From a virus (lineage: Duplodnaviria > Heunggongvirae > Uroviricota > Caudoviricetes), in the IMG/VR virus record IMGVR_UViG_2571042870_000013, positions 1-15,765 of that record: a stretch of DNA of 15,765 nucleotides. The stretch is one strand, 5' to 3'. The notes beneath the pieces were generated by a model. The model had not been told where the DNA came from and did not search any database. It saw nothing but the letters and a program-made list of their open reading frames with translations. Positions 1 through 15,765 of this stretch are shown here, one piece after another. The position numbers were made by a program, and so were the translations under genes. Numbering within the stretch: position 1 is the first letter of the stretch; the number at the start of each line of letters is the position of its first letter.

Positions 1-40
1 GACCATTACCAAATAGTTTATATGCTAAAAATTTAGGGAA

Positions 41-3000
41 TCATTTTCCTAATTCTCCAGCTAAAAGTTCAGCCTGCTTCAAAACAGTCTCTGTGGCGAG
101 CAATGACATATCAGGCGGATAACCATATTTTTTGAGCAGACGTTTTACCACCACGCGAATTTTTGCTCTTGCTGCTTCTTTCACTGTCCAGTCAAGACTG
201 ACATTGTTGCGGATAGCCTCCGTAAGTACGACTGCCAGTTCTCGTAGTTTTTCCTTTTCCATTAACTCGCGAGCACTGTCGTTATCTGCAACAGCAGAAT
301 AGAAGGCATATTCATAAGCGCTGAGGTTTAACTGGCTGGCAAGGCTGTCAGATTCCTGGATAGTCTTGGCAAGCTTGATTAGCTCATCAATTACCTCCGC
401 TGCGGTCAGTACCTTGTTCTGGTAGCCATTGATTGCAGAGGTCAGCATATCAATCAGTTTTTTGCCTTGGGTGATACTTTGATTCGAGCGAACCTTGATC
501 TCGTCAGAAAGCAGTTTTTTAAGCGTTTCCAAAGCAATATTTCTGTGTTGGTAATCCTTCATTTCCTGAAGGAATTCTTCAGAAAGAACGGAAATATCAG
601 GTTTTTGTATCCCAGCAGCGTCAAAAATATCAACAACTTTATCGGTAACCAGAGCCTGATCGATAGTCTGTTTTACCCGAACTTCGAGACTGTCATTGTG
701 TTCTTCTTCTGATCCGTCTGAGTTTTCAGTAAATTTATTCAGTCTGGCTTTTACTGCCTGGAAGAATGCTACTTCGGGTGCCGCTTCCATTGCTTTATCG
801 TGCGGTGTCGCCAATGCAAATGCCTGCGATAAGGCTGCAACCGCAGCGAGGAAACGCATTTTACCTTTACCGTTATCCAGCCCTAAAATATGGTTTTCTG
901 ATTCAAGAATAATTGTCAGGCGTTGTGAGGTAGTTGCGGCAAAGTAAGCTTTGTAATCGTATCCATGCATCATGCCTTCCAGGATTTCCAGCTTTTCCTG
1001 CATGAGCGTTACGGCTTCTTCCTGAACCTCAGCAGGATCTCCACGTCCACCTGCATCAGAGTAAAAGGAGAGGGCTTCTTTTAAATCAGAGGCAATGCCC
1101 AGATAGTCAACAACCAGACCGCCTATCTTATCTTTATACACACGGTTCACACGGGCAATTGCCTGCATAAGGTTGTGGCCTTTCATTGGTTTGTCGATAT
1201 ACAGCGTATGCATGCTGGGAGCGTCGAAGCCGGTTAACCACATATCACGCACTATCACCAGTTTCAGCTTGTCGTCGTCATCCTTCATACGGTTAGCCAG
1301 AACCTGACGTTCTTTTTTTGTGGTGTGGTGTTTGGCAATTTCTGGCCCGTCAGCAGCAGAAGAGGTCATGACGACTTTTATTATACCGTCATTTAAATCA
1401 TCGCTGTGCCATTCAGGTTTTAAGGCTATGATTTCTTTATATAGTTCAGCAGCAATACGGCGGGACATGGTAACAATCATGCCCTTACCATGATCGGCAT
1501 TGGATTTTAAGCGCTGCTCAAAGTGCAGAACCATATCCGCCGCAATCGCTTTAATACGTTTTGAACTGCCAATCAAACCTTCGATTCTGGCCCATTTAGA
1601 ACGTTCTTTTTGCGTGAGCGTCAGTTCGTCCTCGTTAAACTCATCATCAAAGTCTTCAATAAGCTGACGACCTTCATCACTGATGGCAATTTTGGCAAGA
1701 CGGCTTTCATAAAAGATACGAACTGTTGCACCATCTTCAACGGCCTGCGAGATATCGTAGATATCAACATAGTTACCAAAAACAGCAGGCGTGTTGACGT
1801 CCGTTTTTTCTATGGGGGTTCCGGTAAAGCCGAGATAGGTCGCATTAGGTAAGGCATCACGCATATATTTGGCAAAGCCGTAAACGGTGCGTTTACCTGT
1901 TACGTTGCCTTCGCTGTCTTTCACGTCAACTTCTTTGGCGCTGAAACCGTACTGGGAACGGTGTGCTTCATCAGCGATAACGACAATATTGGTTCTGTCT
2001 GACAACAACTCATAGATATTGCTGCCATCATCAGGCTGGAATTTTTGAATAGTAGTAAACACCACACCGCCAGAGGCGACACGCAAATATTCTTTGAGTT
2101 CTTCCCGGTTGTTGGCCTGTTTTGGTGTCTGACGAAGTAGCTGGGTCGCGGAAGAGAACGTACCGAATAGCTGATCATCTAAGTCGTTACGGTCAGTAAT
2201 CACAACAACTGTCGGATTATCCAGCGCCAGCACAATTTTCCCGGTATAAAACACCATCGAAAGCGATTTACCGGAACCCTGAGTATGCCAGACTACGCCC
2301 GCTTTGCGATCTCCGGTTTTTTGCGCATTAACAAGATCTTTACTGTTACGTCCCTGCTGGCGCAGTGCCACTTCGGCAGAGGGGGAGTCCGCATTCACCG
2401 CTGAGGCACGAATAGTGGAAAGAACTGCTGCATTGACCGCGTAGTACTGGTGATAAGCCGCCATTTTTTTAACAGTACGGATACTGATAATCCCTTTGCT
2501 GTCTTCATGTTTGCTGGCCTCAAACACGATAAAGTGGCGGATTATATCCAGCAGCGTTACAGGATTAAGCAACCCCTGTAATAAAACTTCAAGCTGTGGT
2601 TGGGTACTGGTGGCTTGCGTTTTACCGTTAGCAGTTTTCCACGTCATATAACGACTGAAATCGGCAGAAACCGTCCCCGCTTTGGCTTCCAGCCCGTCAG
2701 ATATCACATTAAAAGCATTGTAGTTAAACAGACCGGGGATTTGGTTCTGATAGGTTTTAATCTGATTATAGGCACCTGTTACCGTTGCATTTTCGTCAGC
2801 GGCATTTTTAAGTTCGATAACGACTAATGGCAGGCCATTGATGAATAAAATAAGATCAGGTCGGCGGGTATGGTTGCCTTCTTTGATGGTGAGCTGATTA
2901 ATGACCAGAAATGCATTATTAGTGGGATCGTTAAAGTCGATCAGGCTGGCCAGTTCTCCTTGTGTATTACCATCCTTGCTGACTTCGATATTGATTCCTT

Positions 3001-3280
3001 CGGTCAAAAGGCGATGAAAGGTTAGATTGTTTGCCATTAGGTCAGGTGAGCTGATCTGCATCACCTGTTTTAGAGCTTCTTCACACTTCTGCTCACTAAG
3101 GTGCGGGTTAATTCGTTGCAATGCTGTACGCACTTTATCTTCAAGGATAACCTGCTGATAGCTACGTAACGGATTGATTCCACTGGGTTCAATGTCCGGG
3201 CCGTAAACATACTCATAGCCCAGCCCTTGCAGGTGCTCAATTGCCATTACTTCAATATCGGATTCGGTCATCTTTGCCAT
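41..3280 (-). CDS. hsdR: Type I restriction enzyme R subunit (endonuclease/translocase) HsdR
   Basis: 1079-aa ORF. N-terminal PD-(D/E)xK-like nuclease motif (PDLILFINGLPLVVIELK), helicase motif I (HTQGSGKS) and DEAH-type motif II (VVIADEAHRSQ), which is the hallmark architecture of HsdR. SD-like AAGGA about 10 nt upstream of the ATG at 3278-3280. Lies directly downstream of hsdM-hsdS on the same strand. Confidence 0.92.
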   Translation of the reverse strand: MAKMTESDIEVMAIEHLQGLGYEYVYGPDIEPSGINPLRSYQQVILEDKVRTALQRINPHLSEQKCEEALKQVMQISSPDLMANNLTFHRLLTEGINIEVSKDGNTQGELASLIDFNDPTNNAFLVINQLTIKEGNHTRRPDLILFINGLPLVVIELKNAADENATVTGAYNQIKTYQNQIPGLFNYNAFNVISDGLEAKAGTVSADFSRYMTWKTANGKTQATSTQPQLEVLLQGLLNPVTLLDIIRHFIVFEASKHEDSKGIISIRTVKKMAAYHQYYAVNAAVLSTIRASAVNADSPSAEVALRQQGRNSKDLVNAQKTGDRKAGVVWHTQGSGKSLSMVFYTGKIVLALDNPTVVVITDRNDLDDQLFGTFSSATQLLRQTPKQANNREELKEYLRVASGGVVFTTIQKFQPDDGSNIYELLSDRTNIVVIADEAHRSQYGFSAKEVDVKDSEGNVTGKRTVYGFAKYMRDALPNATYLGFTGTPIEKTDVNTPAVFGNYVDIYDISQAVEDGATVRIFYESRLAKIAISDEGRQLIEDFDDEFNEDELTLTQKERSKWARIEGLIGSSKRIKAIAADMVLHFEQRLKSNADHGKGMIVTMSRRIAAELYKEIIALKPEWHSDDLNDGIIKVVMTSSAADGPEIAKHHTTKKERQVLANRMKDDDDKLKLVIVRDMWLTGFDAPSMHTLYIDKPMKGHNLMQAIARVNRVYKDKIGGLVVDYLGIASDLKEALSFYSDAGGRGDPAEVQEEAVTLMQEKLEILEGMMHGYDYKAYFAATTSQRLTIILESENHILGLDNGKGKMRFLAAVAALSQAFALATPHDKAMEAAPEVAFFQAVKARLNKFTENSDGSEEEHNDSLEVRVKQTIDQALVTDKVVDIFDAAGIQKPDISVLSEEFLQEMKDYQHRNIALETLKKLLSDEIKVRSNQSITQGKKLIDMLTSAINGYQNKVLTAAEVIDELIKLAKTIQESDSLASQLNLSAYEYAFYSAVADNDSARELMEKEKLRELAVVLTEAIRNNVSLDWTVKEAARAKIRVVVKRLLKKYGYPPDMSLLATETVLKQAELLAGELGK

Positions 3281-3338
3281 GCGTACTGTCCTTATTGCCG
3301 CTTAACCAGAGAGCGGGCTGTACACCCGCATAATTATT

Positions 3339-4532
3339 TTATGCTACTGATGCGATTGCTTCTTCCGCATACTGAACCCGTACTTCGCCGCTCATCAGTT
3401 TGGGAAGGAGAGTGTCGCGCAGAGATTCTATGTTTTTAATTTGTGAGTTGTTAATACTTATTTTTTTCCAGAAGAAATCAATCTGTGTAGTGAATTCTTT
3501 CACCATACACTCCGGGGGGAGTTTGAATTCTGGGCGTTGTAATCCGTCAGCCGACAGCTGATTTACAGTTGAACCGTTAGTTGCAGCAACAACTTGCTCA
3601 TGCATATCTTTGGAGCAAAGTAAATAGTACAGAAAAGCATTGGTTAAGTAACTATCGTCATTGATGCTGATTTTAAATAAATGATGCGTATATATGGATA
3701 ATTCGCTTTCTGTTTTTGGAATTATAGCAGGATACCCTATGAGTCGATATTCATGGCCCTGTTCTGTATTGGCTACAATGATATCCCCAGGCTTTATAAT
3801 ATGCCTTTCTTTAAAATCACCATTGTAGTATTTTATACCTGCACTCTTATAACCACCGCCCTCAAGTACTGAGTTCAAACTAAAAAGTGGAATGCCGTTA
3901 TCTGACGTGGTAAGGCCGGCTCCCTTGTAGCTTAATCCCTTAGCTACTGTAATATGACAATCAAGAGTCGTTATTTCCCAATCCGCATGCGTCTCTTCAA
4001 TAAACCACTGTCTAAATAGGGTTTCTGCCATGGATTCCAGAGTTTTATTCTGGCGATGAAGCAGGTCTATTTTGTCTTTAAGAGAGGACAAAATAGAGGC
4101 GATGGCTTTTTGTTCAGATTCATCAATTGGTAAGTAAAGAGGAATCAAATTTAGCGATGCTTTATTTAATTTTGGTTGAGCAGCACCTGTTAAATAAGGA
4201 GATAGATCAAGTTGTGAAAAATATTGGATTATCAATGCCGTTAAATGGGGCTTTTTAGCTTTAAGGACATGAGCGTGATTATTAACCCAAAATTTTCCAG
4301 TAGCTTCAAATGCTATAGGTGTTTTTCTGGACTTTAAGTTTTCTCCATCTTCAGAAATAAGGATGTAGCTGCCATCAAAAATATAATTGTCGATATAATC
4401 GACAATTCCTGACGCTCCATAATATGGAAAATTTCCTTTCTTATGGGCTCGTTCCATAGCACTCAAAGGAATTCTTTGTGCGTTGCAAAAATCTGCTAAT
4501 TCAGTTATACAAAAATTTCTCCACCTACTCAT
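3339..4532 (-). CDS. hsdS: Type I R-M specificity subunit HsdS (two target-recognition domains with central and C-terminal conserved spacers)
   Basis: 397-aa ORF with bipartite HsdS layout: a variable N-terminal region, a central conserved helix ([13 protein letters not shown]), a second variable region, and a C-terminal conserved segment ([14 protein letters not shown]). Its start overlaps the hsdM stop by 4 nt (ATGA at 4529-4532), indicating translational coupling. Confidence 0.88.
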
Positions 4533-6076
4533 AAAACCACCTTCGCCAGATTATCAACGATGGCTCTGTTCAGACGCGCCTCTTCTTCCAGTTGCGCTTC
4601 AAACTCAGCTTTAAGAGCCGTAAAGCGTTCTTTAAAGTCGAAATCGTCTTCTTCATCAGCAAGACCAACATAACGGCCAGGTGTCAGCACATAATCGAGT
4701 TTAGCAACTTCAGCAATGTCTACTGACGCACAGAAACCAGCGACGTCTTCGTAGTCGCCACCTTTGTTACGCCAGTTATGATAGGTATCAGCGATGGTTT
4801 TTATATCGTCGTCAGAAAGTACTTTGGTACGACGATTAATTAAATGACCGAGATTACGGGCATCAATAAACAGAATTTCTTTACTACGATCACGATACTG
4901 GTTGCTGTTATGACGGTCACGGCGCATAAACCATAATGCAGCAGGGATCTGAGTATTCAGGAACAGCTTTGCCGGTAAGTTGACGATACAGTCAATCACA
5001 TTGGCATCTTTTACCAGTGCAGCACGAATATCACCTTCACCAGAGCTTTTAGAAGTTAATGCCCCTTTTGCCAGAACAACACCCGCTTGCCCTTTAGGAG
5101 ACAAGTGATACAAAAAATGTTGCATCCATGCAAAGTTAGCGTTGCCAGCAGGTGGAATGCCATATTGCCAGCGGGCATCACCACGAAGCTGCTCACCAGA
5201 CCAGTCGGAAACGTTAAACGGTGGGTTAGCTATGATAAAATCAGATTTCAAATCTTTGTGAGCATCGTTAAGAAATGAACCTTCATTATTCCAGCGAACG
5301 TGTTCAGAATTAATCCCACGAATTGCCAGGTTCATTTTTGCCAGACGCCAAGTGGTCTGGTTGGACTCCTGCCCATAGATCGAAATATCGTCAATATTTC
5401 CCTGATGTGCTTCTACAAATTTTTCTGACTGAACGAACATACCACCAGAACCACAGCAGGGATCAAAGACACGGCCTTTATAGGGTTCCAGCATGTTAAC
5501 CAGCAGGCTTACAATAGATTTTGGCGTATAGAACTGGCCGCCTTGTTTGCCTTCTGCCAGTGCAAATTCACCTAGGAAGTATTCGAATACGTGACCTAAA
5601 ACGTCAGCAGAGCGTGCTTTGGCATCTCCTAGTGCAATGTTGCCAATCAGATCTATCAGCTCACCCAGAACAGTGGCGTCGAGGTTTTGTCGGGCATAGA
5701 CTTTCGGCAACACACCTTTTAACTGTGGATTGCCCGCTTCGATAAGCTCCATCGCATCATCAACCATCTTACCGATTTCAGGAAGCTTGGCCTTAGAAAT
5801 CAGATAGTTCCAACGTGCAAGCTCAGGGACAAAGAAAACGTTGTAAGCGGTGTACTCGTCTTTGTCTTCCGGATCAGCACCTGCGAACTCGCCTTTACCG
5901 GCTTTCAGCAACTCATAATGAGATTCAAAAGAATCAGAAATGTACTTAAGGAAAATGAGGCCTAGTACGACGTGCTTGTACTCGGCTGCATCAATGTTTT
6001 TACGCAGTTTGTCTGCCGCTTTCCACAGGATGACCTCTAACGGGTCTGTTTTGATTTCTTTAGGTTTTCTGGCCAT
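4529..6076 (-). CDS. hsdM: Type I R-M N6-adenine DNA methyltransferase subunit HsdM
   Basis: 515-aa ORF with a SAM-binding motif I ([12 protein letters not shown]) and catalytic motif IV NPPF ([12 protein letters not shown]), typical of gamma-class N6-adenine methyltransferases of Type I systems. First gene of the M-S-R operon. Confidence 0.92.
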
Positions 6077-6224
6077 TAGCGTAACCTTATGAAGGGGGAA
6101 GATGGCCCTATTTTGCCTTAAAGTTCCGCTTGTTACGAGCTTATACAGCGATTAATTATTATCTGGTTTTAGTGTGTTCGTGTAGCTCAGCAAGTGCAAT
6201 GACTCATGGAGTAAATGCTTTGTA

Positions 6225-6557
6225 GCGGGATTGTAGATGTCAGGTCATTGCCGTCAATGGAGCCAGTGTCATTGGCATAATTGCTGCACAGCCGATGCCA
6301 CGCGCACATTCGCTAGTTCACTGTGGTTCATCGTGTGTACTACACCAGTACGCAGTCCGGGAAGTAACGGCATGGCAGAATCGTTTGTAAAGACGTTCAA
6401 GCGGGATTATGTGTACGTAGATGATCTGCTGGATGCAGTCTAAATGATGGAAACAATGGCAGAATAGATAGAGGATTATAATAATCTGCATCCACACAAG
6501 GGGTTGAACATGAAATCGCCACGCGAATATCGTGATGCCATATTAGCAGTTAATTAG
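6225..6557 (+). pseudogene. Remnant of a DDE (rve/integrase-core type) IS transposase C-terminus, interrupted by two in-frame stop codons
   Basis: A single reading frame gives ...TPVRSPGSNGMAESFVKTFKRDYVY...DLLDAV(stop 6441-6443)...MAE(stop 6465-6467)IEDYNNLHPHKGLNMKSPREYRDAILAVN(stop 6555-6557). The SPxxNGxxESF...LK and YNxxRPH...SP.EY-like motifs are the conserved C-terminal signature of IS3-like DDE transposases. The N-terminal catalytic part is missing and the frame is broken. Confidence 0.6.
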
Positions 6558-6997
6558 CCGTGTCCGTTTTAGCAGGGACAACTCCAGTATTCAAAAAAGC
6601 TTTCTTAGTGCATATGCATGAGGTGAATAGATGTACAGGCTATGACAAACCATAGTTGTAATTTTTAATGTTTAAAATTCTCCGTTACAGTAGGACATTC
6701 CTTGTACATTAAATTCCATCTAAGGTTGAATTTTTAATTTAATAAGGTCGCAATCTAAAATGATGTGTATGGGGTTATTTGTAAGATGATTTTTTATTTT
6801 TGATAGTGGTGATTAAGGGAGCGGGTAATGTTTGTCTATTCAAAAATATAGAGATTCAAGGTTGGTAGCAGTTTGGCTTCTTTTATAACCGAAGGGCAGA
6901 AAAGCAAGGGGAACTCGAAGAAGCAAGCGCAGCGGCTTCGCAGAGTTAGCCCTTGCTTCTCTTATAATTGGCATTATTCATTCAAGAACAATAGGAT

Positions 6998-7017
6998 CTT
7001 CGCTTGTACAAGCGAAG
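6998..7017. repeat. Perfect 20-bp palindrome CTTCGCTTGTACAAGCGAAG
   Basis: Read directly from the sequence: arms of 9 bp around a central TA, with perfect dyad symmetry. Lies in the gene-free spacer downstream of the ParB-like operon. Confidence 0.9.
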
Positions 7018-7672
7018 CTATAATAAAAACAATCAATTAATAATTTTAAAAGTATTAAACAAGAACCTATTGACATTCATAAAATACAAGTTATTTATAA
7101 TGTATGCCATAAATAAAAAGTTTTATGTCATATGTATCCTGCACTATGTGCAGTTAATGTACCACTTGTCCCATAGATGGGAATATTGGAAAGGTTACTT
7201 TGTTTTGAAGTAGCCTTTCGTCCTTCAATATTAACGATTACTTATTGCTATTACCAAGTCCAGTCGAATCGAAGAACATCTTTTATCTGAAACGACTCCT
7301 AATACCCGGTTAAAGCCACAATATCTCTCGCATACGTAGACCAAAGAAAAATTATGATATTAACTATGTGATTTTTTTTAGTGTTAAGTTGAATAATTAA
7401 ATACTGGAGAGTTTTCTGTGCACTACCAATTGCTGGTTCATCTGTTCTGCCGCTGATGTTTCTGACGAATCTCCCGGTGACACAGAACTGTCCCTCTCTA
7501 CCAGCCTTTATTCGACTCAATGTCCGGCTGCTGATACGCAGTTATCCCTTCGTATCAATGACTGACACTTAAACGTAATGCTTTGGTTGCTGGCGTATCT
7601 GACAGCTTCTTCGGCGTGAAGGTCGTTGTGTAAGTATACTTCTTGGTTTATTTAGGCTATATAAAACCATGA

Positions 7673-8569
7673 CTATGACTTGCTGTTTTCAGTAAGAGTC
7701 TTATCATCCAAAGAATTTATTCTAGAAATTCTTTTTAACTCATTAAGATAATCAACCTCGTTTTCTAAGAACCAATGAAGAACTTTAGAATTGCCAAGTA
7801 ATTTATTAATATATGACTGGATTATAACGAATTTCAACATATCTGAACCATACTCGGTTTGAAGCTTTTTCGTTTCTTCCGAAGTTGTTGCCATTTCTTG
7901 TTCCAGACGAAGTATGGTTTTTTTTATGTCCTTTTTATAGGGAGTGTTTTTCCCTTTATTTACTATCATCGATGCCGGTGTTGCATCCAAGATGCTCATT
8001 GCAAATTTTTTACTATAATTATCAAAATTAATCATTGTACCGACTGCTTCAATTTGGCGAATTGGCTTCATTTTCCTCAAAACGTCAAATGTAGCCTTAG
8101 GTATAGGTTTATCAGAAAGTTTCGCAATTACACTTGGATCTATGCCGTTCATCACATTCGCTTTATCTTTTATGGCATCAACAGATATGCCCAAAGCAGC
8201 ACTAAGTTTTTCAATTGATACTTTTGCCAGAGACTTAATTATCATTCTATGTTCTTCAACTACATTTATATGATTCACTTGTTTGTTAGGAGTGAAAGCA
8301 TCATCTATGCTCGAAAGTATACATGGAGCTTTTTCTATACCTAAGTCTTTTAAAGCCTCAACCCTTAAATGGCCATCAAGTATCTTAGTGACATCTTTAT
8401 CTTTGTCATAGAATACTATTATTGGTTCAATAATACCTAAGCTTTCGATAGAGGTAACTATTTGATGATATTTATGGCTTCGCTTTACGTTTTCTAATAA
8501 TTCCTTAGATGGAATTAACTTATTAGTTTCCAGGTAAATAAAATTATCGCCAAAACGTATCTGAATCAT
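7673..8569 (-). CDS. Divergent ParB/Srx-fold protein (ParB-like partner 2), function unknown
   Basis: 298-aa ORF. N-terminal region resembles the ParB N-domain (IEPIIVFYDKD...ILDGHLRVEALKDLGIEKAPCIL) with a DGxxR-type box, followed by an HTH-like segment (SIEKLSAALGISVDAIKD). It lacks the arginine-rich ENxxRR box present in the upstream paralogue. Its start overlaps the upstream gene's stop (ATGA at 8566-8569). Confidence 0.6.
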   Translation of the reverse strand: MIQIRFGDNFIYLETNKLIPSKELLENVKRSHKYHQIVTSIESLGIIEPIIVFYDKDKDVTKILDGHLRVEALKDLGIEKAPCILSSIDDAFTPNKQVNHINVVEEHRMIIKSLAKVSIEKLSAALGISVDAIKDKANVMNGIDPSVIAKLSDKPIPKATFDVLRKMKPIRQIEAVGTMINFDNYSKKFAMSILDATPASMIVNKGKNTPYKKDIKKTILRLEQEMATTSEETKKLQTEYGSDMLKFVIIQSYINKLLGNSKVLHWFLENEVDYLNELKRISRINSLDDKTLTENSKS

Positions 8570-9462
8570 TTTAATACCTCTTTGTTTACTGGGGTTAATA
8601 TCTGAGATGGTAGTTCTGAAAGATTCTCTTGTTCAAGTATATGTTGAAAGCTTTTATTCATCATTATGATGTTAAAAATCTCATTTACTATTAGTAGGTT
8701 GGTTTTTATGAATTTTGAGTTGTTATAAACAGATTTATGTTCAGCGATACTATTTTCATAAAGCTCAATCAACTCCTCTGCAGTCATCCTTTTTGATGGT
8801 TTGTGATAATAAAATCCGGCTGCTTTTGCACCTTTATTCCCAACTGTTCTTTGATTTAGAATGTGTTTTATCTTTATAATGTCCCGACTTTTTATTAATT
8901 TTTTATCATATGCTTCGGTAAGAATATCTTGTGCTTCCTCAGTTTCACATCTTGCAAATTGCACTGCGAGATACAGAGGCAAATTACCCCGTTCGACTGC
9001 TGAGAGAAGTTTATGCTCTCCCTTATCAAGTAGCATATTAATACTGCTCACCCAGTTCGATGAATATCCAGTAATCTCACTTATTTCGGAGTCTGAAAGT
9101 CCTCTGATTTTCATGTCTTTAATCACCTGTAATAACTCATTAGAACGTGGTCTTCTCCTTGCAATGTTTTCAACTAAACTCATAACGTAAGCATCTTCTT
9201 CTGATACATCTCTTATAATTGCTGGAATAATAGTTTCACCTAATGCAACGAGAGCCTCTATTCTCCCTTGACCACAAATTAAAGCATATTTGAAATCGCC
9301 TTCATCAATAGCTCTTACGCTTATTGGCTTGCTTAATCCTCTTTTTTTTATGCTTTCCTTTATTTCTTCATGCACTACCTTATTTCTTGTTCGTGGGTTA
9401 AGAAATTTTATTTTTGCAATCTCAATTTGAATTATTGGGAATTCATTTTTTTCAGGCAGCAT
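8566..9462 (-). CDS. ParB/Spo0J/KorB-like DNA-binding protein with HTH (ParB-like partner 1)
   Basis: 298-aa ORF. Colinear with ParB-family N-domains: NPRTR, PISVR, GQGRIEALVALGETIIPAIIRDVSEEDA, then the arginine box LVENIARRRP, then an HTH (GLSDSEISEITGYSSNWVSSINMLL). Its start overlaps the end of the serine recombinase gene by 11 nt (9452-9462). Confidence 0.72.
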   Translation of the reverse strand: MLPEKNEFPIIQIEIAKIKFLNPRTRNKVVHEEIKESIKKRGLSKPISVRAIDEGDFKYALICGQGRIEALVALGETIIPAIIRDVSEEDAYVMSLVENIARRRPRSNELLQVIKDMKIRGLSDSEISEITGYSSNWVSSINMLLDKGEHKLLSAVERGNLPLYLAVQFARCETEEAQDILTEAYDKKLIKSRDIIKIKHILNQRTVGNKGAKAAGFYYHKPSKRMTAEELIELYENSIAEHKSVYNNSKFIKTNLLIVNEIFNIIMMNKSFQHILEQENLSELPSQILTPVNKEVLK

Positions 9463-11008
9463 ATAGTTCCCTCACTTTCATGCGAGTAATAATTTGTAGA
9501 AGTTTATCAAGATTATCAAATCTATAGAGATCTAATCGAATGTTGTTTGTTTCCGTCATGCACATTTTATTATATTCGTTTTCAATCTTTGGTATGATAT
9601 AAAAATCAAGAGGTGAAATATTTTGTGAATTCATTCGTATAACAATTGTTATGTCTGCTTTCTGTGAGTTATCAAACCGGACTTTCCATCTAAGTTTACC
9701 TGATTTCATATGTATGCATTTAGTAACAAGGACGGAAATTAAAAACTCATCATTGATGTAAAGCATTGGGGCATATTTATACTCGTCTATATGACAGTTA
9801 CTTTTTAAAATTTCACCCTTAAAATCCTCAATTATCTCTGAGTAAAATGATCTTAGTGCTTCATTTATTTTGAGATAGCTGTAATCATGTTCTGGCTTAT
9901 AACCAATCAAAGTATATGCTCTTAAAAGACCACCAAATCGGGTTCTATAAACAGAAGATGAAGGGCCTGTATCATCTTCATCAATGATAAAGCCTGATAG
10001 TTTTCCATTAGATTCTAATTTTTGTTTTAGTTTTTCTAATAGATCTTCATTAGTCAAATGAATGGATCGGAGCTGAATTATTTCTTGAGCTTTATTGTAT
10101 TTTTTCTTTGAAATAATAGGTTTATATGCCTTGTCACATCTAACCCATTCATGTTTGGGGTTTTTTACAAGCCTACTTTTTAATTTAGATGAGGTTTTGT
10201 TATATATGTTGTTTCCAATATATTTTTCATTTGTCAAAATTTGATGTATTTTTGCACGAGTCCATAATGTTCCATTTTCTGCAGGTATGTTCTGTTCATT
10301 TAATCTCTCAGCAATAATGAATTCTGGGACGTTATTATCTATAAAGAGATCATATATTCTATTTACAATTTTTATTTCATTTTTTGGTCCCGGAATTAAT
10401 ATTACCCTATCTGTTTGAATACTCTTTCTTTTGCGGAAACTCAATATTTCTTTAGCTATGCCATTTTCGTCTACTAAAAGACGTCTCAGCCCATAACCAG
10501 CCATACCGCCTTGATGATAACCAAGCTTTATTAAATTTACTTGCCCTATAAATACCTTTTCAGATAGATTCCTGCTGTGATATGCAGCACTAGATCTTTT
10601 TATATTCAGTATAACAGAGGACTCTAAAGGGAAATCTTTAGTGGGTATAGGTTCGGAACAATATATAAGATCTACACCATTTCTCTCAAATAGAAAGGAA
10701 TAATATGCCGCTTCATCACTATTTTGAAAACGACCAAAACGGCTCACATCATAAAATAATACAGCCTGTATATCTATTTTCTTTTGTTCTACATCGCTAA
10801 GTAACTGCTGCAAAGAATGCCTGCCTACGATACTGACTCCGCTCTTACCTGCATCATCGTAGGTATAAGCGATTTCCATATTGTTCTTTTCAGCATAATC
10901 TTTGATATATTCGGACTGATTATGTAAAGAATATTGCTGATGGTCGGTAGACATCCTCAAGTACTGCGCGACCCTAACTCTATGATTTTTGTCATTTTCG
11001 CTAGCCAT
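9452..11008 (-). CDS. Large serine recombinase (resolvase/invertase catalytic domain plus recombinase domain plus long C-terminal extension)
   Basis: 518-aa ORF. N-terminal catalytic motif YLRMSTDHQ (putative nucleophile Ser20), DDAGKSG, and VLFYDVSRFGR; a recombinase-domain segment (GYHQGGMAGYGLRR...LWTRAKIHQILTNEKYIGNNIY); and about 230 further residues typical of large serine recombinases. SD-like GAGG precedes the ATG at 11006-11008. Confidence 0.88.
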   Translation of the reverse strand: MASENDKNHRVRVAQYLRMSTDHQQYSLHNQSEYIKDYAEKNNMEIAYTYDDAGKSGVSIVGRHSLQQLLSDVEQKKIDIQAVLFYDVSRFGRFQNSDEAAYYSFLFERNGVDLIYCSEPIPTKDFPLESSVILNIKRSSAAYHSRNLSEKVFIGQVNLIKLGYHQGGMAGYGLRRLLVDENGIAKEILSFRKRKSIQTDRVILIPGPKNEIKIVNRIYDLFIDNNVPEFIIAERLNEQNIPAENGTLWTRAKIHQILTNEKYIGNNIYNKTSSKLKSRLVKNPKHEWVRCDKAYKPIISKKKYNKAQEIIQLRSIHLTNEDLLEKLKQKLESNGKLSGFIIDEDDTGPSSSVYRTRFGGLLRAYTLIGYKPEHDYSYLKINEALRSFYSEIIEDFKGEILKSNCHIDEYKYAPMLYINDEFLISVLVTKCIHMKSGKLRWKVRFDNSQKADITIVIRMNSQNISPLDFYIIPKIENEYNKMCMTETNNIRLDLYRFDNLDKLLQIITRMKVRELYAA

Positions 11009-11178
11009 GCACGAAACCTCATGGATGATTCAATACAATGTAGTGGATAAAATTGATCAAATTTCAACCGAATTCAACTGTTTTATCATTGATTAGAGCG
11101 AATTTGGTAGATCTTCGAGGTGTATGATAATCGAGAAGAGATGTGAATTATTTAGCTGATATGACCGACAGCTTTCGT

Positions 11179-11228
11179 TATGTGGACTCAATGTCCCCAT
11201 TTGTAAATGGCTATGCTTAGTCCACATA
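11179..11228. repeat. Nested inverted repeat: 10-bp arms (TATGTGGACT / AGTCCACATA) enclosing an inner palindrome CCATTT-GT-AAATGG
   Basis: Read directly from the sequence in the intergenic region between the P4-type integrase stop (11291) and the serine recombinase start (11008). Outer arms at 11179-11188 and 11219-11228; inner dyad at 11197-11210. Confidence 0.8.
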
Positions 11229-11290
11229 GGTTAATGGTGTGATTATTAATTCTTTAACTAAATCAAGATAGTTAATCCATCATGGGAGAG

Positions 11291-12520
11291 TTATGCGGCA
11301 ATAACTTTGCATTTTTGAGACGAAACATAGTCACTCCACCATTGCATGAGAACCACCCGTTCAGTGAGATACTCTGCACGATTGTAGGCTGCAATTATTT
11401 CATCTTTCTTCGAGTGGGCAAGGGCGGCTTCTAAGACATCAGTCCTAAACTTGCCAGACTCCTCAGCAGCCGTTCTAGCAATGGATCGCATACCGTGAGC
11501 TACAAGCTCACCTCCGAAACCCATACGGATTATGGCCGCATTAGCTGTTTGTTCATGCATGTGATTGAGTGGAGCTTTGATACTGGGGAACACCCACTCT
11601 CTATGCCCGCTGATGACTTTCATTAAATCCAAAACTCGCAAAGCTTCTTTGCTCAGTGGAACTTTGTGAGGCTTCTTCATTTTCATAAACTCCGCCGGGA
11701 TGTTCCACATGCCAGTTTCAATATCAATATCTGACCATCTTGTGCGAACAGCTTCACCTGGGCGAACCCATGTGAGAAGTTGCCACTCAATCAGTAGCCT
11801 TGTTTCCAAACGGATAGAAGCATTGTTTAGAGCAACCAAGAAGCGAGGGAGTTCGGAAGGGGGTAATGCTGGCATATTCTGTTTTTTTGGCTTGCTGAAC
11901 CGTTGCCCCAGGTTGTCTGCCGGGTTGAATTCTATGAGTTCTTCTGTTGCTGCATAGCGGAAAATTTCATTCAGGCGGGATATGATGCGGCGAAGTGTTT
12001 CAAGGACACCTCGTTTTTCTATGGGTTCTAAATGCTGTTTAAGCATTTTAGGGCGAATCTCCTTAATTGGGGTATCACCCAATGTGGAAAAGATATTTCT
12101 CTCTAGGCTTCGCCAGATGTCGTTAGCATGATCTTGGGAGATGCCTGACGTTTTGACTTTCTCATCAAGCCACTTCTTGGCTACTGCTTGAAATGTATGT
12201 TCCGTGGCATCTTTCAGTGCATTGGCTTTTTGGTTGTTATGAACTTGGGGGTCTATACCATTTGTAAGCAACGACAAGTATTCATCACGTAAAGCTCGTG
12301 CCTTCGCAAGTGTAAGGTGAGGATAGGTTCCTAAGCTCACCTTAGTTCGCTTTTTGGTCACAGGCACTGCATATCTGAAATACCAATTTTTCTTCCCTCC
12401 CTTCGCCAGGGGAGCGATTCGCAACAGCAAACCATCGCCGTCAAAAAGGTCAACCTCTTTTTCGGCAGGTTTGGTGCTTTTGATTTCAGTGTCAGTGAGC
12501 TTCTTAGCGATTTTGGCCAT
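11291..12520 (-). CDS. int: P4-type tyrosine integrase (CP4-57 IntA-like); true start taken as the ATG at 12518-12520 rather than the upstream GTG at 12601
   Basis: N-terminus MAKIAKKLTDTEIKSTKPAEKEVDLFDGDGLLLRI...WYFRY matches the characteristic N-terminus of P4-family integrases. C-terminal catalytic region has HGMRS (HxxR) and AAYNRAEY (catalytic Tyr). It is adjacent to a copy of the ssrA 3' end, the classic target of this family. Confidence 0.9.
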   Translation of the reverse strand: MAKIAKKLTDTEIKSTKPAEKEVDLFDGDGLLLRIAPLAKGGKKNWYFRYAVPVTKKRTKVSLGTYPHLTLAKARALRDEYLSLLTNGIDPQVHNNQKANALKDATEHTFQAVAKKWLDEKVKTSGISQDHANDIWRSLERNIFSTLGDTPIKEIRPKMLKQHLEPIEKRGVLETLRRIISRLNEIFRYAATEELIEFNPADNLGQRFSKPKKQNMPALPPSELPRFLVALNNASIRLETRLLIEWQLLTWVRPGEAVRTRWSDIDIETGMWNIPAEFMKMKKPHKVPLSKEALRVLDLMKVISGHREWVFPSIKAPLNHMHEQTANAAIIRMGFGGELVAHGMRSIARTAAEESGKFRTDVLEAALAHSKKDEIIAAYNRAEYLTERVVLMQWWSDYVSSQKCKVIAA

Positions 12521-12618
12521 GTTTGGGACCCTCGATTTTAGGACCCATCTTCGTGGGTCCCATTCAGGGTGCCATAACTCGTAGTTCTCAGCAATTCTCA
12601 CTAGACTACAATAGACGT

Positions 12619-12650
12619 AAAAAAGCCCGCAGAGCTTGTGCTGTGCGGGC
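12619..12650 (-). terminator. Rho-independent terminator (minus strand) between the att core and the integrase
   Basis: On the minus strand the sequence reads GCCCGCACAGCACAAGCTCTGCGGGC followed by TTTTTT: a GC-rich stem of about 7 bp with a loop, then a T-run. Confidence 0.55.
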
Positions 12651-12686
12651 TTAGTAGACTTTACTGAACTTCAGTACATCAATATT

Positions 12687-12731
12687 TGGTGGAGCTGGCG
12701 GGAGTTGAACCCGCGTCCGAAATTCCTACAT
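12687..12731 (-). repeat. ssrA: 45-nt copy of the 3' end of the tmRNA gene ssrA (attachment-site core / direct repeat); not a full ssrA gene
   Basis: The minus strand reads ATGTAGGAATTTCGGACGCGGGTTCAACTCCCGCCAGCTCCACCA, which matches the 3' terminus (T-arm, acceptor stem, CCA) of enterobacterial tmRNA as I recall it. Identity stops after these 45 nt; the adjacent sequence at 12732 onward has no resemblance to the ssrA body. Confidence 0.85.
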
Positions 12732-12846
12732 ACCATTTTCACTATAACAAAAACATTAACTTGCGTTTAAAATCATCAAGTTAGTATTATCTTATGTTTG
12801 TCCGTTTTACTCATTTTTAATGCTCTGTCGCCAATCTGTCGCCACA

Positions 12847-13497
12847 TTATCCGCTGCTTGAGTTGAAATCTGTGGGTTTACGGAGATTAGATCTTATGGT
12901 TTTTTCAGCGATACGAATAGTCGAAAATTTATGCAGGTTCATCAGTGCTATACAAATCCCAAGTGCAAAAAAGTAGCTGGACATTCCTAATCTTTGCATA
13001 TCAGTAAGTTTATTAATTTTCTCTAAAATATGTTGGGTTACTAATCCTTCGTATACAAAAGGTATGGAAGTTATAAAACCGCCAATAAAATAGAATGTTA
13101 AGCTTATCAGCTTTATAGATTTTCTATATATCCAAAAGCGATATCTTTTTTTTGTCCATTTAAATATTTGTTTTTCACTACTAATAGAAATTAGTTTTTG
13201 ACACTTGCTATAGTTATCAATGTCATTAACTGGATCGTTAACACCTAAAAGAATCTCTCTCTGTTCTGGAGTTAGGTTCTTATCTTTTGTTATTGCAGCA
13301 ATACCATAATTATATGCAACTTTCTTGATTTTGGGATCTTCAGTATTCTTATATAGATTGTATGCAAACTCGCTAATGTTTTTGCGCGAGTTGAAAATCT
13401 TATCTTTGGGGAAAACCCAGCCGGATCTTACCGCGAGCATCTGTATGATCGGGGTAATTATCGCGACAGAATACTTAATTATCTCGTTTATGTTCAT
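12847..13497 (-). CDS. Hypothetical small membrane protein (accessory 'moron'-like gene) immediately downstream of the prophage integrase
   Basis: 216-aa ORF, AT-rich relative to the neighbouring int and cI genes. Hydrophobic segments (LISLTFYFIGGFITSIPFVY, MSSYFFALGICIALMNL) suggest 2-3 transmembrane helices. Its start is only 14 nt downstream of the int stop on the same strand, so it is probably co-transcribed with cI-int. No family recognised. Confidence 0.55.
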   Translation of the reverse strand: MNINEIIKYSVAIITPIIQMLAVRSGWVFPKDKIFNSRKNISEFAYNLYKNTEDPKIKKVAYNYGIAAITKDKNLTPEQREILLGVNDPVNDIDNYSKCQKLISISSEKQIFKWTKKRYRFWIYRKSIKLISLTFYFIGGFITSIPFVYEGLVTQHILEKINKLTDMQRLGMSSYFFALGICIALMNLHKFSTIRIAEKTIRSNLRKPTDFNSSSG

Positions 13498-13511
13498 GAT
13501 CCATTGTTTAC

Positions 13512-14528
13512 TTAAATTAAGTTATAAAGAGGGTTTTTTGTTACTGCATCCTCCAGGTGGTCTGGAGAGAAGTGTGCATAAATCATCGTCATTTTAATAT
13601 CTGAGTGCCCTAAAATATCACGTAAAACGAGTATGTTCCCACCGTTCATCATAAAATGGCTGGCAAATGTATGGCGCAGGACGTGGGTGCATTGGCCTTC
13701 CGGTAGTTCAATACCGGCCCGTTTTACCGCCCGTTCAAAGGCTTTTCTGCATGGTGTGAATAATTTCCCTCGGTTTTTGGGTAGCTCGTTGTACAGATCC
13801 TGAGATATCGGTACGGTACGGTTTTTTTTACCCTTGGTCTTTGTATAGGTAATCCGGTATTTCGATAGTTGATGGCCCTGCAGGTTTTCAGCTTCACTCC
13901 AACGAGCACCGGTTGCTAGGCATATTTTTGCAATCATTAGCAGACTGGGGCTTTGAGAATCAGCACAGGCATCCAGCAGACGTTTAATTTCCTCCGGGGT
14001 TAGGAACGCCAGTTCACCCTCCGTAATTTTAAATGTTGGAAGCCCGGCAAGCGGGTTGGGGGCTGACCAGTGGCCCAGCTTTTTCAGTGTACCAAAAACA
14101 GATGATAGGTTGCGCTGTTCAAGGTTTACCGTGCGGGGCTTAACGGGTGACATGAACGAGCCGTCTTCATTTTGGACCTCCCCCTTTAATCTGGCTTCCC
14201 GATATTTTGTGAAATCACCTGCTGTCAGCTCAGAGGCGATGGGATCGCCTAGACCATTACAGATAATTCTAAGTTTCGCCATCAGGCGTTTGGGGTCTGC
14301 GAGTGTTTGACCATATAGGGAATACCACTGCTCAATCACTTCTGATAATCGCCGCCGATCTTCCTTCTCACCAAGCCATGGCTTTTTGTTTACTTCGTTC
14401 ATGGTGAAGTTTTCGAATGCTATGGCTTCGCCTTTCGTGGCAAATTGCTTACGCACGCGCTTGCCATTGCGTCCATTGGGATAGCACTCACACAACCATT
14501 TTCCGTTCGGCTGTTTTCTGATGGTCAT
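13512..14528 (-). CDS. int: P2/186-type phage integrase (tyrosine recombinase)
   Basis: 338-aa ORF. N-terminus (NGKW...RNGKRVRKQF...EAIAFE) and C-terminal catalytic region (HVLRHTFASHFMMNGGNILVLRDILGHSDIKMTMIYAHF) closely parallel P2 Int as recalled (ATHALRHSFATHFMINGGSIITLQRILGH...MVYAHF). Sits directly downstream of a CI-like gene, as in P2/186. Confidence 0.9.
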   Translation of the reverse strand: MTIRKQPNGKWLCECYPNGRNGKRVRKQFATKGEAIAFENFTMNEVNKKPWLGEKEDRRRLSEVIEQWYSLYGQTLADPKRLMAKLRIICNGLGDPIASELTAGDFTKYREARLKGEVQNEDGSFMSPVKPRTVNLEQRNLSSVFGTLKKLGHWSAPNPLAGLPTFKITEGELAFLTPEEIKRLLDACADSQSPSLLMIAKICLATGARWSEAENLQGHQLSKYRITYTKTKGKKNRTVPISQDLYNELPKNRGKLFTPCRKAFERAVKRAGIELPEGQCTHVLRHTFASHFMMNGGNILVLRDILGHSDIKMTMIYAHFSPDHLEDAVTKNPLYNLI

Positions 14529-14529
14529 A

Positions 14530-15162
14530 TCAAAGGCTCTTAATGATTTTCAGTGCACGGCCTACTACCTCAATGTCATCCAGGCCACACTCAAACGATG
14601 AATCATCCTGATGCACTACTAATCTGTTTCCCGGGAGTCGAGTCAATTTAACAATGCTTTTTATCCCGTCGATATCGACTAACCACATACCATTCACTGG
14701 TGGTGTTTGGTTGCGATCTATTAAATAAGAATCACCAGAAGTAGTCACCAGCAGTAGGTTGCTTGAGTCTGAGGGGAGTATGCTGCTATCAATGATTGCT
14801 TTTCCAGCATCGACCAATAAACCACCGTTGAGAGTCGCCTTGTCAATTTCAGGAGATACTAGTTCAGAAAGAGGTACAACCTTGCTGGAGTTCACGGAAT
14901 TGATATTTTTTTTAGGTTCAATGTTTGGACCTGGCTCCCCCTGTCCGGTGGTTAGCCACAGTAAAGAAACTCCTGTTTCCAAGGCGCACTGAATCACCCA
15001 CTCTGCAGGAAAACTATCTCTTAAGTATCTGTTTGCCATGGTGCTTTTTGATGCGCCTAAGTGATCGCAAAGTTGCTGTCTGGACTTGAAATCATAGGCT
15101 GCCATTAGTCTATGGATAGCTTCTCTTCCCCCTGTATTCTCTCCAGCCTTTACCTGTATCAT
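14530..15162 (-). CDS. cI: Phage 186-type CI immunity repressor
   Basis: 210-aa ORF with CALETGVSLLWLTTGQGE and GMWLVDIDGIKSIVKLTRLPGNRL...FECGLDDIEVVGRA, closely matching conserved blocks of coliphage 186 CI as recalled. Transcribed divergently from the Cox/Apl-like and CII-like genes. Confidence 0.85.
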   Translation of the reverse strand: MIQVKAGENTGGREAIHRLMAAYDFKSRQQLCDHLGASKSTMANRYLRDSFPAEWVIQCALETGVSLLWLTTGQGEPGPNIEPKKNINSVNSSKVVPLSELVSPEIDKATLNGGLLVDAGKAIIDSSILPSDSSNLLLVTTSGDSYLIDRNQTPPVNGMWLVDIDGIKSIVKLTRLPGNRLVVHQDDSSFECGLDDIEVVGRALKIIKSL

Positions 15163-15281
15163 TTTTTAATCCTGTTGACGTATCAAATATTGGATCGTAG
15201 TATCTCGATGTATCAAATATTGAATCAATTAAAACGAGATAAAACGACGTAAACCAAACCTTAATCGGGAGATACTGCACT
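15163..15281. promoter_or_regulatory. Prophage lysis/lysogeny switch region: candidate rightward sigma70 promoter (TTGACG 15175-15180, 17-nt spacer, TAGTAT 15198-15203) and two near-identical 17-bp operator-like repeats (15180-15196 and 15210-15226)
   Basis: Read from the sequence. GTATCAAATATTGGATC and GTATCAAATATTGAATC are each internally near-palindromic (ATCAAAT/ATTgGAT) and lie 30 bp apart, between divergent cI and cox/apl-like genes. The first repeat overlaps the candidate promoter spacer. Confidence 0.5.
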
Positions 15282-15524
15282 ATGAGCACTGATATTTCAA
15301 TTCGTGTACCAAAAGAGATGGCTACGCCTGCAGAGTTCGCGGAATGGGAAGGTATCTCCCGCGGCTCCGTGTATCAAAAAATTCACCATGGTCAGCTTGC
15401 TAAATACATGGTCAAGAAAGAAAAAAATAAAGGCCGCGTAAACCTTCGTTATCTGATGTACAAAACTGATCAGGTCCGTGAATCCCTCGGTCATTCCAAC
15501 TTCCGCGTCATTGTTGGTAAGTAA
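15282..15524 (+). CDS. Cox/Apl-family small HTH protein (excisionase / early-lytic repressor candidate)
   Basis: 80-aa ORF in the position of cox/apl (between cI and cII, divergent from cI). The segment ATPAEFAEWEGISRGSVYQKIHHGQL parallels the HTH of P2 Cox as recalled (AIPYQEFAKLIGKSTGAVRRMIDKGKL). GGGAG SD-like sequence upstream. Confidence 0.6.
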   Translation: MSTDISIRVPKEMATPAEFAEWEGISRGSVYQKIHHGQLAKYMVKKEKNKGRVNLRYLMYKTDQVRESLGHSNFRVIVGK

Positions 15525-15555
15525 GTTCAATTATGGGAACTTTCTAAGGGGGCAC

Positions 15556-15765
15556 CATGTTTGATTACAAGATTTCCAAACATCCGCATTTCGATGAAGC
15601 CTGTAGGGCTTTTGCACTGCGTCACAACCTGGTGCAACTGGCAGAACGTGCAGGCATGAATGTACAGATTCTGCGGAACAAGCTGAACCCAGCTCAGCCT
15701 CATTTATTAACCGCACCAGAAATCTGGCTGCTTACCGATCTGACTGAAGATTCAACGCTGGTAGA
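15556..15765 (+). CDS. cII: Phage 186 CII-like regulator, 3'-truncated by the window end
   Basis: ATG at 15556 is preceded by an AAGGGG SD. Translation [69 protein letters not shown] closely matches the N-terminus of coliphage 186 CII as recalled. It has no stop within the window, which is why it is absent from the supplied ORF track. Confidence 0.8.

Follow-up and report, generated by a model that had tools for sequence, protein, structure and literature searches.

An atypical large serine recombinase and two ParB-like proteins form a widespread three-gene cassette that may be mobile-element cargo at the ssrA island of Escherichia coli

Here we examine a stretch of 15,765 nucleotides, positions 1 to 15,765 of IMG/VR virus record IMGVR_UViG_2571042870_000013 (hereafter, the window), that encodes on its minus strand a large serine recombinase and two ParB-like proteins. 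The three genes lie end to end and are referred to together as the trio: the recombinase (9452-11008; 518 aa, ATG start), ParB1 (8566-9462; 298 aa) and ParB2 (7673-8569; 298 aa), a divergent second ParB/RepB paralogue. Our tentative reading is that the trio is a self-contained cargo operon in the accessory region of an ssrA island and that its products form a recombinase-ParB complex with a likely role in mobile-element conflict. Among possible roles, a conflict function (defense or exclusion) that benefits the carrier is the most likely, and stabilization of the carrier is a close second; the conflict role is favored because of the pattern in which the trio is placed in cargo positions of mobile elements. 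That the trio is a separately inserted element, or a switch acting on the window locus, is not supported.

A first-pass annotation of the window had placed a large serine recombinase at 9452-11008, and the gene bears this out. Its intact open reading frame (ORF) of 518 codons contains the Pfam domains Resolvase (PF00239; residues 14-152, E = 7.7e-22) and Recombinase (PF07508; residues 210-312, E = 6e-22), together with the catalytic motifs YLRMSTDHQ (R18, S20) and DVSRFGR. Alignments of 55 and 84 family members show little or no variation at the core residues of these motifs: S20 never changes, and R18, R90 and R93 are fully or almost fully conserved. Because both motifs are present and the core residues are conserved, we consider the recombinase intact and not a pseudogene. 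Structure comparison likewise bears out the assignment of the resolvase catalytic domain. The N-terminal ~320 residues, comprising the catalytic and recombinase domains, align to the SPbeta integrase over ~320 alignment columns, and the protein matches phrog_95, annotated "integrase," with E = 2.7e-69. At 518 aa, with a recombinase domain and with no paired sites found at its locus, it does not resemble the small serine resolvases and invertases, such as those of Tn3/gamma-delta and Hin/Gin, which are ~180-200 aa long, end in a helix-turn-helix and act on paired res or inverted sites. NCBIfam matches of the trio proteins are all sub-threshold.

The remainder of the protein is where it departs from known enzymes. 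In phage-type serine integrases, a zinc-ribbon/coiled-coil domain provides site recognition and directionality control. The 518-aa recombinase has no Pfam zinc-ribbon match and no CxxC pairs, and no coiled coil is seen in the modeled C-terminal region, which consists of short helices and a beta domain. Residues ~320-375 weakly resemble the homing-endonuclease-associated repeat (HNH_repeat), of which relatives carry three to five significant copies; taken as a set, the related recombinases P0245, P0272, P0288 and P0368 have three to five such repeats, located past their recombinase domain. Modeling of the last 219 residues (predicted local distance difference test, pLDDT, 84.9) yields a predicted fold that matches Hjc and restriction endonucleases, with the homing enzyme I-Ssp6803I among the matches. 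E421, D452 and D468 are at least 90% conserved, with a spacing that resembles that of the acidic residues of Hjc, but Y470 occupies the position of the PD-(D/E)xK lysine. The model supports a restriction-endonuclease/Hjc-like fold, and the domain is at most a candidate nuclease, the nearest known proteins being the Hjc/RecU Holliday-junction resolvases and type II restriction endonucleases of the PD-(D/E)xK fold. In contrast to the phage-type large serine recombinases (SprA/YokA of SPbeta, Bxb1, phiC31 and the A118/LI integrase), the trio recombinase lacks the zinc ribbon and coiled coil; has in its C-terminal 200 residues a weakly HNH_repeat-like helical region and a restriction-endonuclease-like domain; and is encoded with two ParB-like proteins at loci where no attachment sites or integration junctions are identifiable. 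It is, therefore, an atypical large serine recombinase in which a helical DNA-binding-like region and a nuclease-fold domain stand in place of the zinc-ribbon/coiled-coil domain.

Both partner proteins have the architecture of ParB with diverged signature motifs. ParB1 (Pfam ParB_N, 1.6e-13; RepB, 8.5e-08) comprises a ParB/Srx N-terminal domain, a helix-turn-helix and a RepB C-terminal domain, and its best solved relatives are Spo0J, ParB, Noc and KorB; ParB2 (RepB, 2.2e-24; ParB_N, 1.1e-05) also aligns to the structures of Spo0J, Noc and KorB. Like the cytidine triphosphate (CTP) switches ParB/Spo0J, Noc and KorB, the pair share the N-terminal ParB/Srx fold and helix-turn-helix, to which a RepB-type C-terminal domain is joined. 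Unlike those switches, they are tandem paralogues whose box II reads GQGRIEA (ParB1) and DGHLRVEA (ParB2) rather than GERRxRA, each variant being kept throughout the family. The motifs NPRxR, GQGR and ENxARR are conserved among 79 ParB1 homologues and LDGHxR among 72 ParB2 homologues. No ParA is encoded in the operon or among the recurrent neighbors of the surveyed loci, and a repeat search of the window revealed no repeated parS- or centromere-like sites. In the absence of GERRxRA, ParA and repeated centromere sites, the pair does not conform to a ParABS partition system. The corresponding PHROGs families, phrog_3951 (ParB1) and phrog_31451 (ParB2), are both of unknown function.

Two possible gene fusions hint that the trio proteins form a physical complex: P0368 is a recombinase joined to a RepB C-terminus, and at locus L010 a single 594-aa ORF spans the ParB1 and ParB2 matches. 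The L010 record (NZ_CP110863.1) is a 13-kb sequence labeled as a Lactiplantibacillus plantarum plasmid, with long ORFs in all frames; these suggest a high guanine-cytosine (GC) content, atypical of the labeled species, and the record is probably a contaminant or wrongly labeled.

The claim that the recombinase is co-operonic with the ParB-fold genes holds in the window and well beyond it. Here, recombinase and ParB1 overlap by 11 nt and ParB1 and ParB2 by 4 nt. A scan of one genome per species, with 10-kb flanks, returned at least 581 stretches encoding a relative, and species-level locus counts below refer to the best 80 of these. The linkage is obligate: among those of the 80 species loci with room for the trio, only two depart from the order recombinase-ParB1-ParB2 (at L031, ParB2 was not detected; at L079, only a fragment of ParB1 was), and 47 of 50 loci in a set of non-enterobacterial viral contigs show it as well. 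Overlaps of 4 or 1 nt join recombinase to ParB1 at 67 of 78 junctions, and a 4-nt overlap joins ParB1 to ParB2 at 31 of 68; these end-to-end overlaps suggest translational coupling.

The family is large and taxonomically broad: it numbers 8000 or more proteins, with no fewer than 581 species hits, 65 plasmid records that encode a near-full-length homologue, and 1359 clusters (50% identity) matched by the C-terminal 199 residues. Homologues ~42-49% identical and accompanied by the same two ParB genes occur on Agrobacterium plasmid pAtC58, a Piscinibacter plasmid, a Burkholderia plasmid and a human-gut contig. Collectively, the 80 loci span Alpha-, Beta- and Gammaproteobacteria, Acidobacteriota, Planctomycetota, Myxococcota, a Bacteriovoracaceae genome and a metagenome-assembled Clostridia genome. 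The flanks are unrelated beyond ~500 nt upstream and ~200 nt downstream, even between cassettes with 85-93% DNA identity; for near-identical cassettes, homology ends near the recombinase start or ~400-530 nt upstream of it, and ~130-200 nt past ParB2.

Within E. coli, the trio is confined to a single setting. Of 5426 complete genomes, 655 (12%) carry the trio, BL21 and REL606 included. The 656 copies (median, one per genome) are without exception on the chromosome, and the trio always lies directly after an integrase of one island lineage or what is left of such a gene after truncation. Wherever the context was inspected, ssrA is followed by the integrase, then by recombinase, ParB1 and ParB2, and then by varying cargo. 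The window follows this plan. A P4-type tyrosine integrase (11291-12601, minus strand; Arm-DNA-bind_3, Phage_int_M and Phage_integrase domains; NF007246, 444 bits) lies beside an ssrA 3'-end fragment, the attachment-site copy (~12687-12731, minus strand; read directly from the sequence, with a partial transfer-messenger RNA (tmRNA) match at 12687-12779), that ends in GCTCCACCA and precedes the ssrA terminator. The first-pass annotation had described an ssrA island with a P4-type integrase, and the integrase and ssrA fragment agree with it; the window itself, however, holds no complete tmRNA gene according to ARAGORN and extends into the end of a P2-like prophage. The trio is AT-rich, as that annotation had described it, and is compositionally foreign to the integrase (29-37% GC for the trio, 40-47% for the integrase).

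The cargo beyond ParB2 differs between strains. It is a type I restriction system in the window and strain ACN001; a RelA/SpoT-domain gene pair in ML35; and the Hxs radical-SAM system, TIGR04141 and a relaxase in H5 and I2, while in BL21 the region is truncated by insertion sequence (IS) element IS1. The final stretch common to all E. coli cassette variants, and the right edge of the conserved block, is the 51 nt past the ParB2 stop (7622-7672, minus strand), and pairwise homology with the H5 and I2 loci ends at +51 to +54. Junctions on this side are scattered (+51, ~+240, +300, +345 at IS1 in B strains, +380, +525 and +795 nt); several fall at IS elements, and there is no single crossover point. 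On the integrase side, every inspected locus with an integrase at least 90% identical has the trio or part of it, and in relatives ~80-83% identical homology is lost 33 nt inside the integrase 3' end and other genes follow. In a widespread variant at the argW island (~1000 contigs), the ssrA-type integrase is truncated while all three trio genes are intact.

The H5 and I2 islands also contain, 51 nt past ParB2, the last 102 codons of a second P4-type integrase with 66% identity (L007:8712-9017 and L008:8712-8936). This remnant suggests that two islands were fused by deletion or recombination within integrase genes.

These comparisons bear on two proposals of the first-pass annotation, a nested element that entered by its own serine recombinase and a programmed inversion or excision switch. 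The finding that it had named as a refutation, a recombinase gene always fixed in one context without junction variation, is what the integrase side shows; the ParB2 side varies, with no common crossover. No precise empty site for the trio and no second, unlinked context was found in E. coli, and with a fixed position after the integrase and scattered ParB2-side junctions, entry as a nested element finds no footing. The switch fares no better. Sampled E. coli matches are contiguous in a single fixed arrangement, IS insertions aside, with no alternative orientation among them; no convincing paired direct or inverted repeat sites were found in the window or in the 21.9 kb of the ACN001 locus that span the island; and the cargo differs while the trio is unchanged. 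Insertion at the window locus and a local switch are thus the least supported readings.

Beyond E. coli, the trio recurs in cargo positions of different elements. It follows directly after tnsABC-tniQ in a Tn7-like element, stands beside AbiEii and Fic genes on pAtC58, and in predicted prophages lies at the end, adjoining tail genes. On ~30 of the 50 viral contigs, no more than ~2.8 kb separates the recombinase start from the predicted end of the provirus, and the gene, next to tail genes, is directed inward. Neighbors across loci include methylases, DUF499, PLD, AbiEii, Fic, HipA and WYL genes, with restriction-modification and Abi genes too, and no partner is constant. A constant fourth gene was considered and rejected: the gene at position -1 is small, variable and mostly without Pfam domains, and no other neighbor recurs. 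At four loci, at the edge of prophage-like regions, tRNA-Met(CAT) is followed by Fic/DOC on the opposite strand and then by the trio (tRNA-edge loci L073:35-111, L067:21-97, L259:9-85 and L294:51-127). An order of tRNA, tyrosine integrase and trio in Rhodobacteraceae was likewise rejected, as the gene between tRNA and trio is Fic.

Sister ssrA islands show what may occupy the same slot. Directly after the integrase they carry AAA and PLD genes or ATP-binding and response-regulator genes, and strain QL57EC (L103:10948-13847) has the HerA-DUF4297 anti-phage pair in the place of the trio, beside a closely related hsdRSM and the same IS remnant. The trio, then, is found in a defense hot spot, in a position interchangeable with that of a known system. 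The QL57EC locus runs on into ygbA and flhA, indicating a larger rearrangement there.

Conserved non-coding sequence accompanies the genes on both sides. The 282-nt leader between the integrase stop and the recombinase start (11009-11290, minus strand) presumably contains the operon promoter and operators. Within it are an imperfect palindrome of 50 bp (11179-11228), whose 24-nt arms are separated by a 2-nt spacer, and another dyad ~40-80 nt before the recombinase ATG. Conservation among E. coli and Leclercia variants is ~93%, with arm changes that are not compensatory; as the half-site of the palindrome is also unique to 11179-11228, we set the palindrome aside as a candidate attachment site. 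From their sequence, the two dyads are possible operators only. In Rhodobacteraceae, tandem 16-nt sites (GCACAnnTGTGCCCAT, 21-nt spacing) precede the recombinase (L023:1829-1869, L073:1982-2022, L061:5597-5637 and others); their central dinucleotide varies, and they lie at -200 or -400 according to which small gene is found upstream. We read them as operators rather than flanking recombination sites because they are found only upstream of the recombinase.

At the other end, many alphaproteobacterial copies of the cassette carry an RNA-like element of ~105 nt on the operon strand, its start lying anywhere from 1 nt before to ~50 nt beyond the last base of the ParB2 stop (L061:9380-9487, L039:4731-4838, L073:5584-5689 and 31 further loci in alignment A8). 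It was detected in 35 of the 80 species loci (34 seed loci and L068), 18 of the 50 viral loci and 10 plasmids. Between Rhodobacteraceae groups its mean column identity is 88%, compared with ~70-75% for coding DNA. The fold has three hairpins, with five helix segments in the pair count; across its 26 pairs, 98.6% of cells are paired, versus 25-43% when partners are slid, and compensatory changes occur in 8 pairs (47 cells). Since G-U cells (34) exceed A-C cells (~7), the sense strand is taken to be the folded strand. There is no Rfam match. Among 80 metagenome contigs with the motif, 65 have ParB2 directly upstream, 5 leave no room to tell and 10 are orphans without trio genes. In the Ruegeria conchae locus L020, two direct copies with trailing hairpins (13341-13449 and 18375-18482) enclose 5 kb of DNA with two genes, one for a protein of 1162 aa that has no Pfam domain and one for a PIN_12 protein; changes in the second copy keep pairing via G-U, and the duplication could reflect cassette capture or a duplicated 3' end. 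We regard the element as a well-supported candidate RNA family, not described before in Rfam and associated with the trio. In the window, the best covariance-model match (4 bits, E = 7.9) is not significant, and nothing significant was obtained in the Agrobacterium, Piscinibacter, Burkholderia, Erwinia and Rhodobacter lacus loci, searches with filters off included; nor did blastn among 38 other loci uncover an alternative conserved downstream element.

Taken together, we favor, still tentatively, a cargo operon with a part in mobile-element conflict. Recombinase, ParB1 and ParB2 would act as one complex, in which the ParB pair may supply DNA loading or recognition and control of the recombinase, and the recombinase would then cut or recombine the DNA so bound; a structured RNA, transcribed downstream of ParB2, may take part in one large branch of Alphaproteobacteria. 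The argW-island variant, in which the trio has stayed intact beside a decayed integrase, agrees with a self-contained operon. Several observations weigh against this reading. PADLOC has no model for the recombinase or ParB1, and the sole match of ParB2 is to a type II methyltransferase model, over its ParB-like N-terminal part (profile positions 6-89); to our knowledge, no serine recombinase has been shown to be a defense effector. The two fusions may be gene-calling artifacts, no recombination site was identified in the window or the ACN001 locus, and the RNA-like element cannot belong to a universal mechanism because it was not detected in the window. Within E. coli, moreover, the trio tracks one integrase lineage without the turnover of the downstream cargo and looks more like backbone than cargo. 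The proposed function itself is drawn from sequence, context and predicted structure. A more elaborate version, in which the trio constitutes a new conflict or DNA-rearrangement system with a recombinase fused to a nuclease-fold domain and directed and controlled by a ParB-like heterodimer, plus RNA in the alphaproteobacterial branch, we consider doubtful.

Alternatively, the trio could be an integration and excision module of its carrier, with the recombinase as a second or alternative integrase and the ParB proteins as accessory or directionality factors. The likeness of the N-terminal ~320 residues to phage serine integrases, phrog_95 included, invites this view, as do the viral contigs with an inward-reading recombinase near the provirus end and tail genes, the four loci where tRNA-Met, Fic and trio follow one another without a tyrosine integrase between, and the location of the E. 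coli trio within 1.7 kb of the ssrA end of the island. An intact tyrosine integrase, however, is already present next to the ssrA attachment site of the E. coli island, and the recombinase lacks the domain that known serine integrases need for attP/attB recognition. The cassette is also found inside plasmids and Tn7-like cargo, far from element ends, and no attachment sites were found; provirus borders, for their part, may be drawn by integrase markers, which would bias the positions. We therefore regard an integration module as unlikely.

Somewhat less likely again is a carrier stability module, in which multimers or tandem arrays would be resolved by the recombinase at a site close to its gene, while the ParB pair has a partition-like or silencing role. 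ParB/RepB proteins and resolvases are classical plasmid stability functions, and the 65 plasmid records fit such a role. So do the operator-like sites upstream of the recombinase (the leader palindrome and the two Rhodobacteraceae repeats), the inheritance of the E. coli trio with its integrase in the manner of a backbone gene, and the tandem elements at ssrA in the window. Yet neither a ParA partner nor repeated centromere-like sites were found, both ParB proteins are without GERRxRA, and the upstream sites occur once per locus only. Every E. coli copy is chromosomal, and the cassette also resides in prophages and transposons, where partition is irrelevant.

We give still less weight to a minimal selfish cassette of ~3.5-4 kb that moves, by insertion or homing, through its own recombinase or nuclease-like domain. 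Closely similar cassettes in unrelated flanks are what such an element would leave, a homing-endonuclease-associated repeat and a nuclease fold with I-Ssp6803I among its matches occur together in the C-terminal half, the cassette is AT-rich relative to its surroundings, and the paired RNA-like elements of L020 enclose a 5-kb two-gene segment. On the other hand, the 655 E. coli genomes record no transposition, only a median of one integrase-linked copy; no terminal repeats, target duplications or empty site were found; and the left boundary is ragged. Finally, serine recombinases include invertases and ~1.5 kb of AT-rich non-coding DNA separates ParB2 from hsdM, but a recombinase that inverts or excises an island segment to control neighbors such as the type I restriction system is highly improbable given the single orientation of the sampled matches, the lack of candidate repeats and the wholly different cargo past an unchanged trio described above.

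The remaining features of the window place the trio between a restriction system and a prophage. To the left, hsdR (41-3280), hsdS (3339-4532) and hsdM (4529-6076) form the type I restriction system. From hsdM to ParB2 (6080-7672) extend ~1.5-1.6 kb, mostly AT-rich and without a convincing gene, in which the decayed remains of a transposase (integrase core) lie at ~6290-6560. It is here that the breakpoints distinguishing island variants cluster, and a promoter and terminator scan of the AT-rich region gave a result no better than chance.

To the right, the ssrA 3' fragment marks the end of the island, and a P2-like prophage starts beyond it, with an integrase (13512-14528) and CI (14530-15162). 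In BL21, a complete ssrA abuts the island integrase, and homology with the window ends at the ssrA fragment. The ACN001 locus is 99.9% identical to the window, and by comparison with it the P2-like prophage presumably lies between the island and the site of the intact ssrA, the locus compared ending short of ssrA. Two integrative elements appear to occupy ssrA in tandem (12620-12731 and 13512-15162), in the order P2-like prophage, repeated ssrA 3' end with terminator, and island. Between the ssrA fragment and the P2-like integrase is a 216-aa ORF (12847-13497, minus strand; ~32% GC) with no Pfam or PADLOC match, assigned to phrog_21256 of unknown function; its counterpart in ACN001 is a different gene of 309 aa, and the prophage thus seems to have a slot for variable cargo at this end.

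The closest likenesses for the trio as a whole are the parCBA operon of plasmid RK2 and xisF-xisH-xisI of Anabaena, each of which combines a serine recombinase with two dedicated accessory proteins; the likeness lies in this logic. In RK2, the resolution site adjoins the operon, a toxin-antitoxin pair is adjacent and ParA is a small resolvase. RK2 ParB is a staphylococcal-nuclease-type enzyme, XisH and XisI are small proteins, and all are unrelated to the ParB proteins of the trio. Literature searches by terms and by protein accessions returned no description of the trio, although most subscription journals were beyond their reach and an earlier description is possible; searches on resG of SGI1 and by Pfam accession returned nothing.

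In summary, the recombinase family represented here differs in three respects from the phage-type serine integrases used in genome engineering: their control domain is missing, a nuclease-fold domain is present, and two ParB-like partners always accompany it. Because BL21 carries the cassette, the trio is easy to study experimentally. Knowledge of its substrate could uncover a novel means by which a serine recombinase is directed, or a novel function of genomic islands in defense or stability, and the RNA reading, if true, would point to a possible RNA-associated serine recombinase, which has not been described so far.

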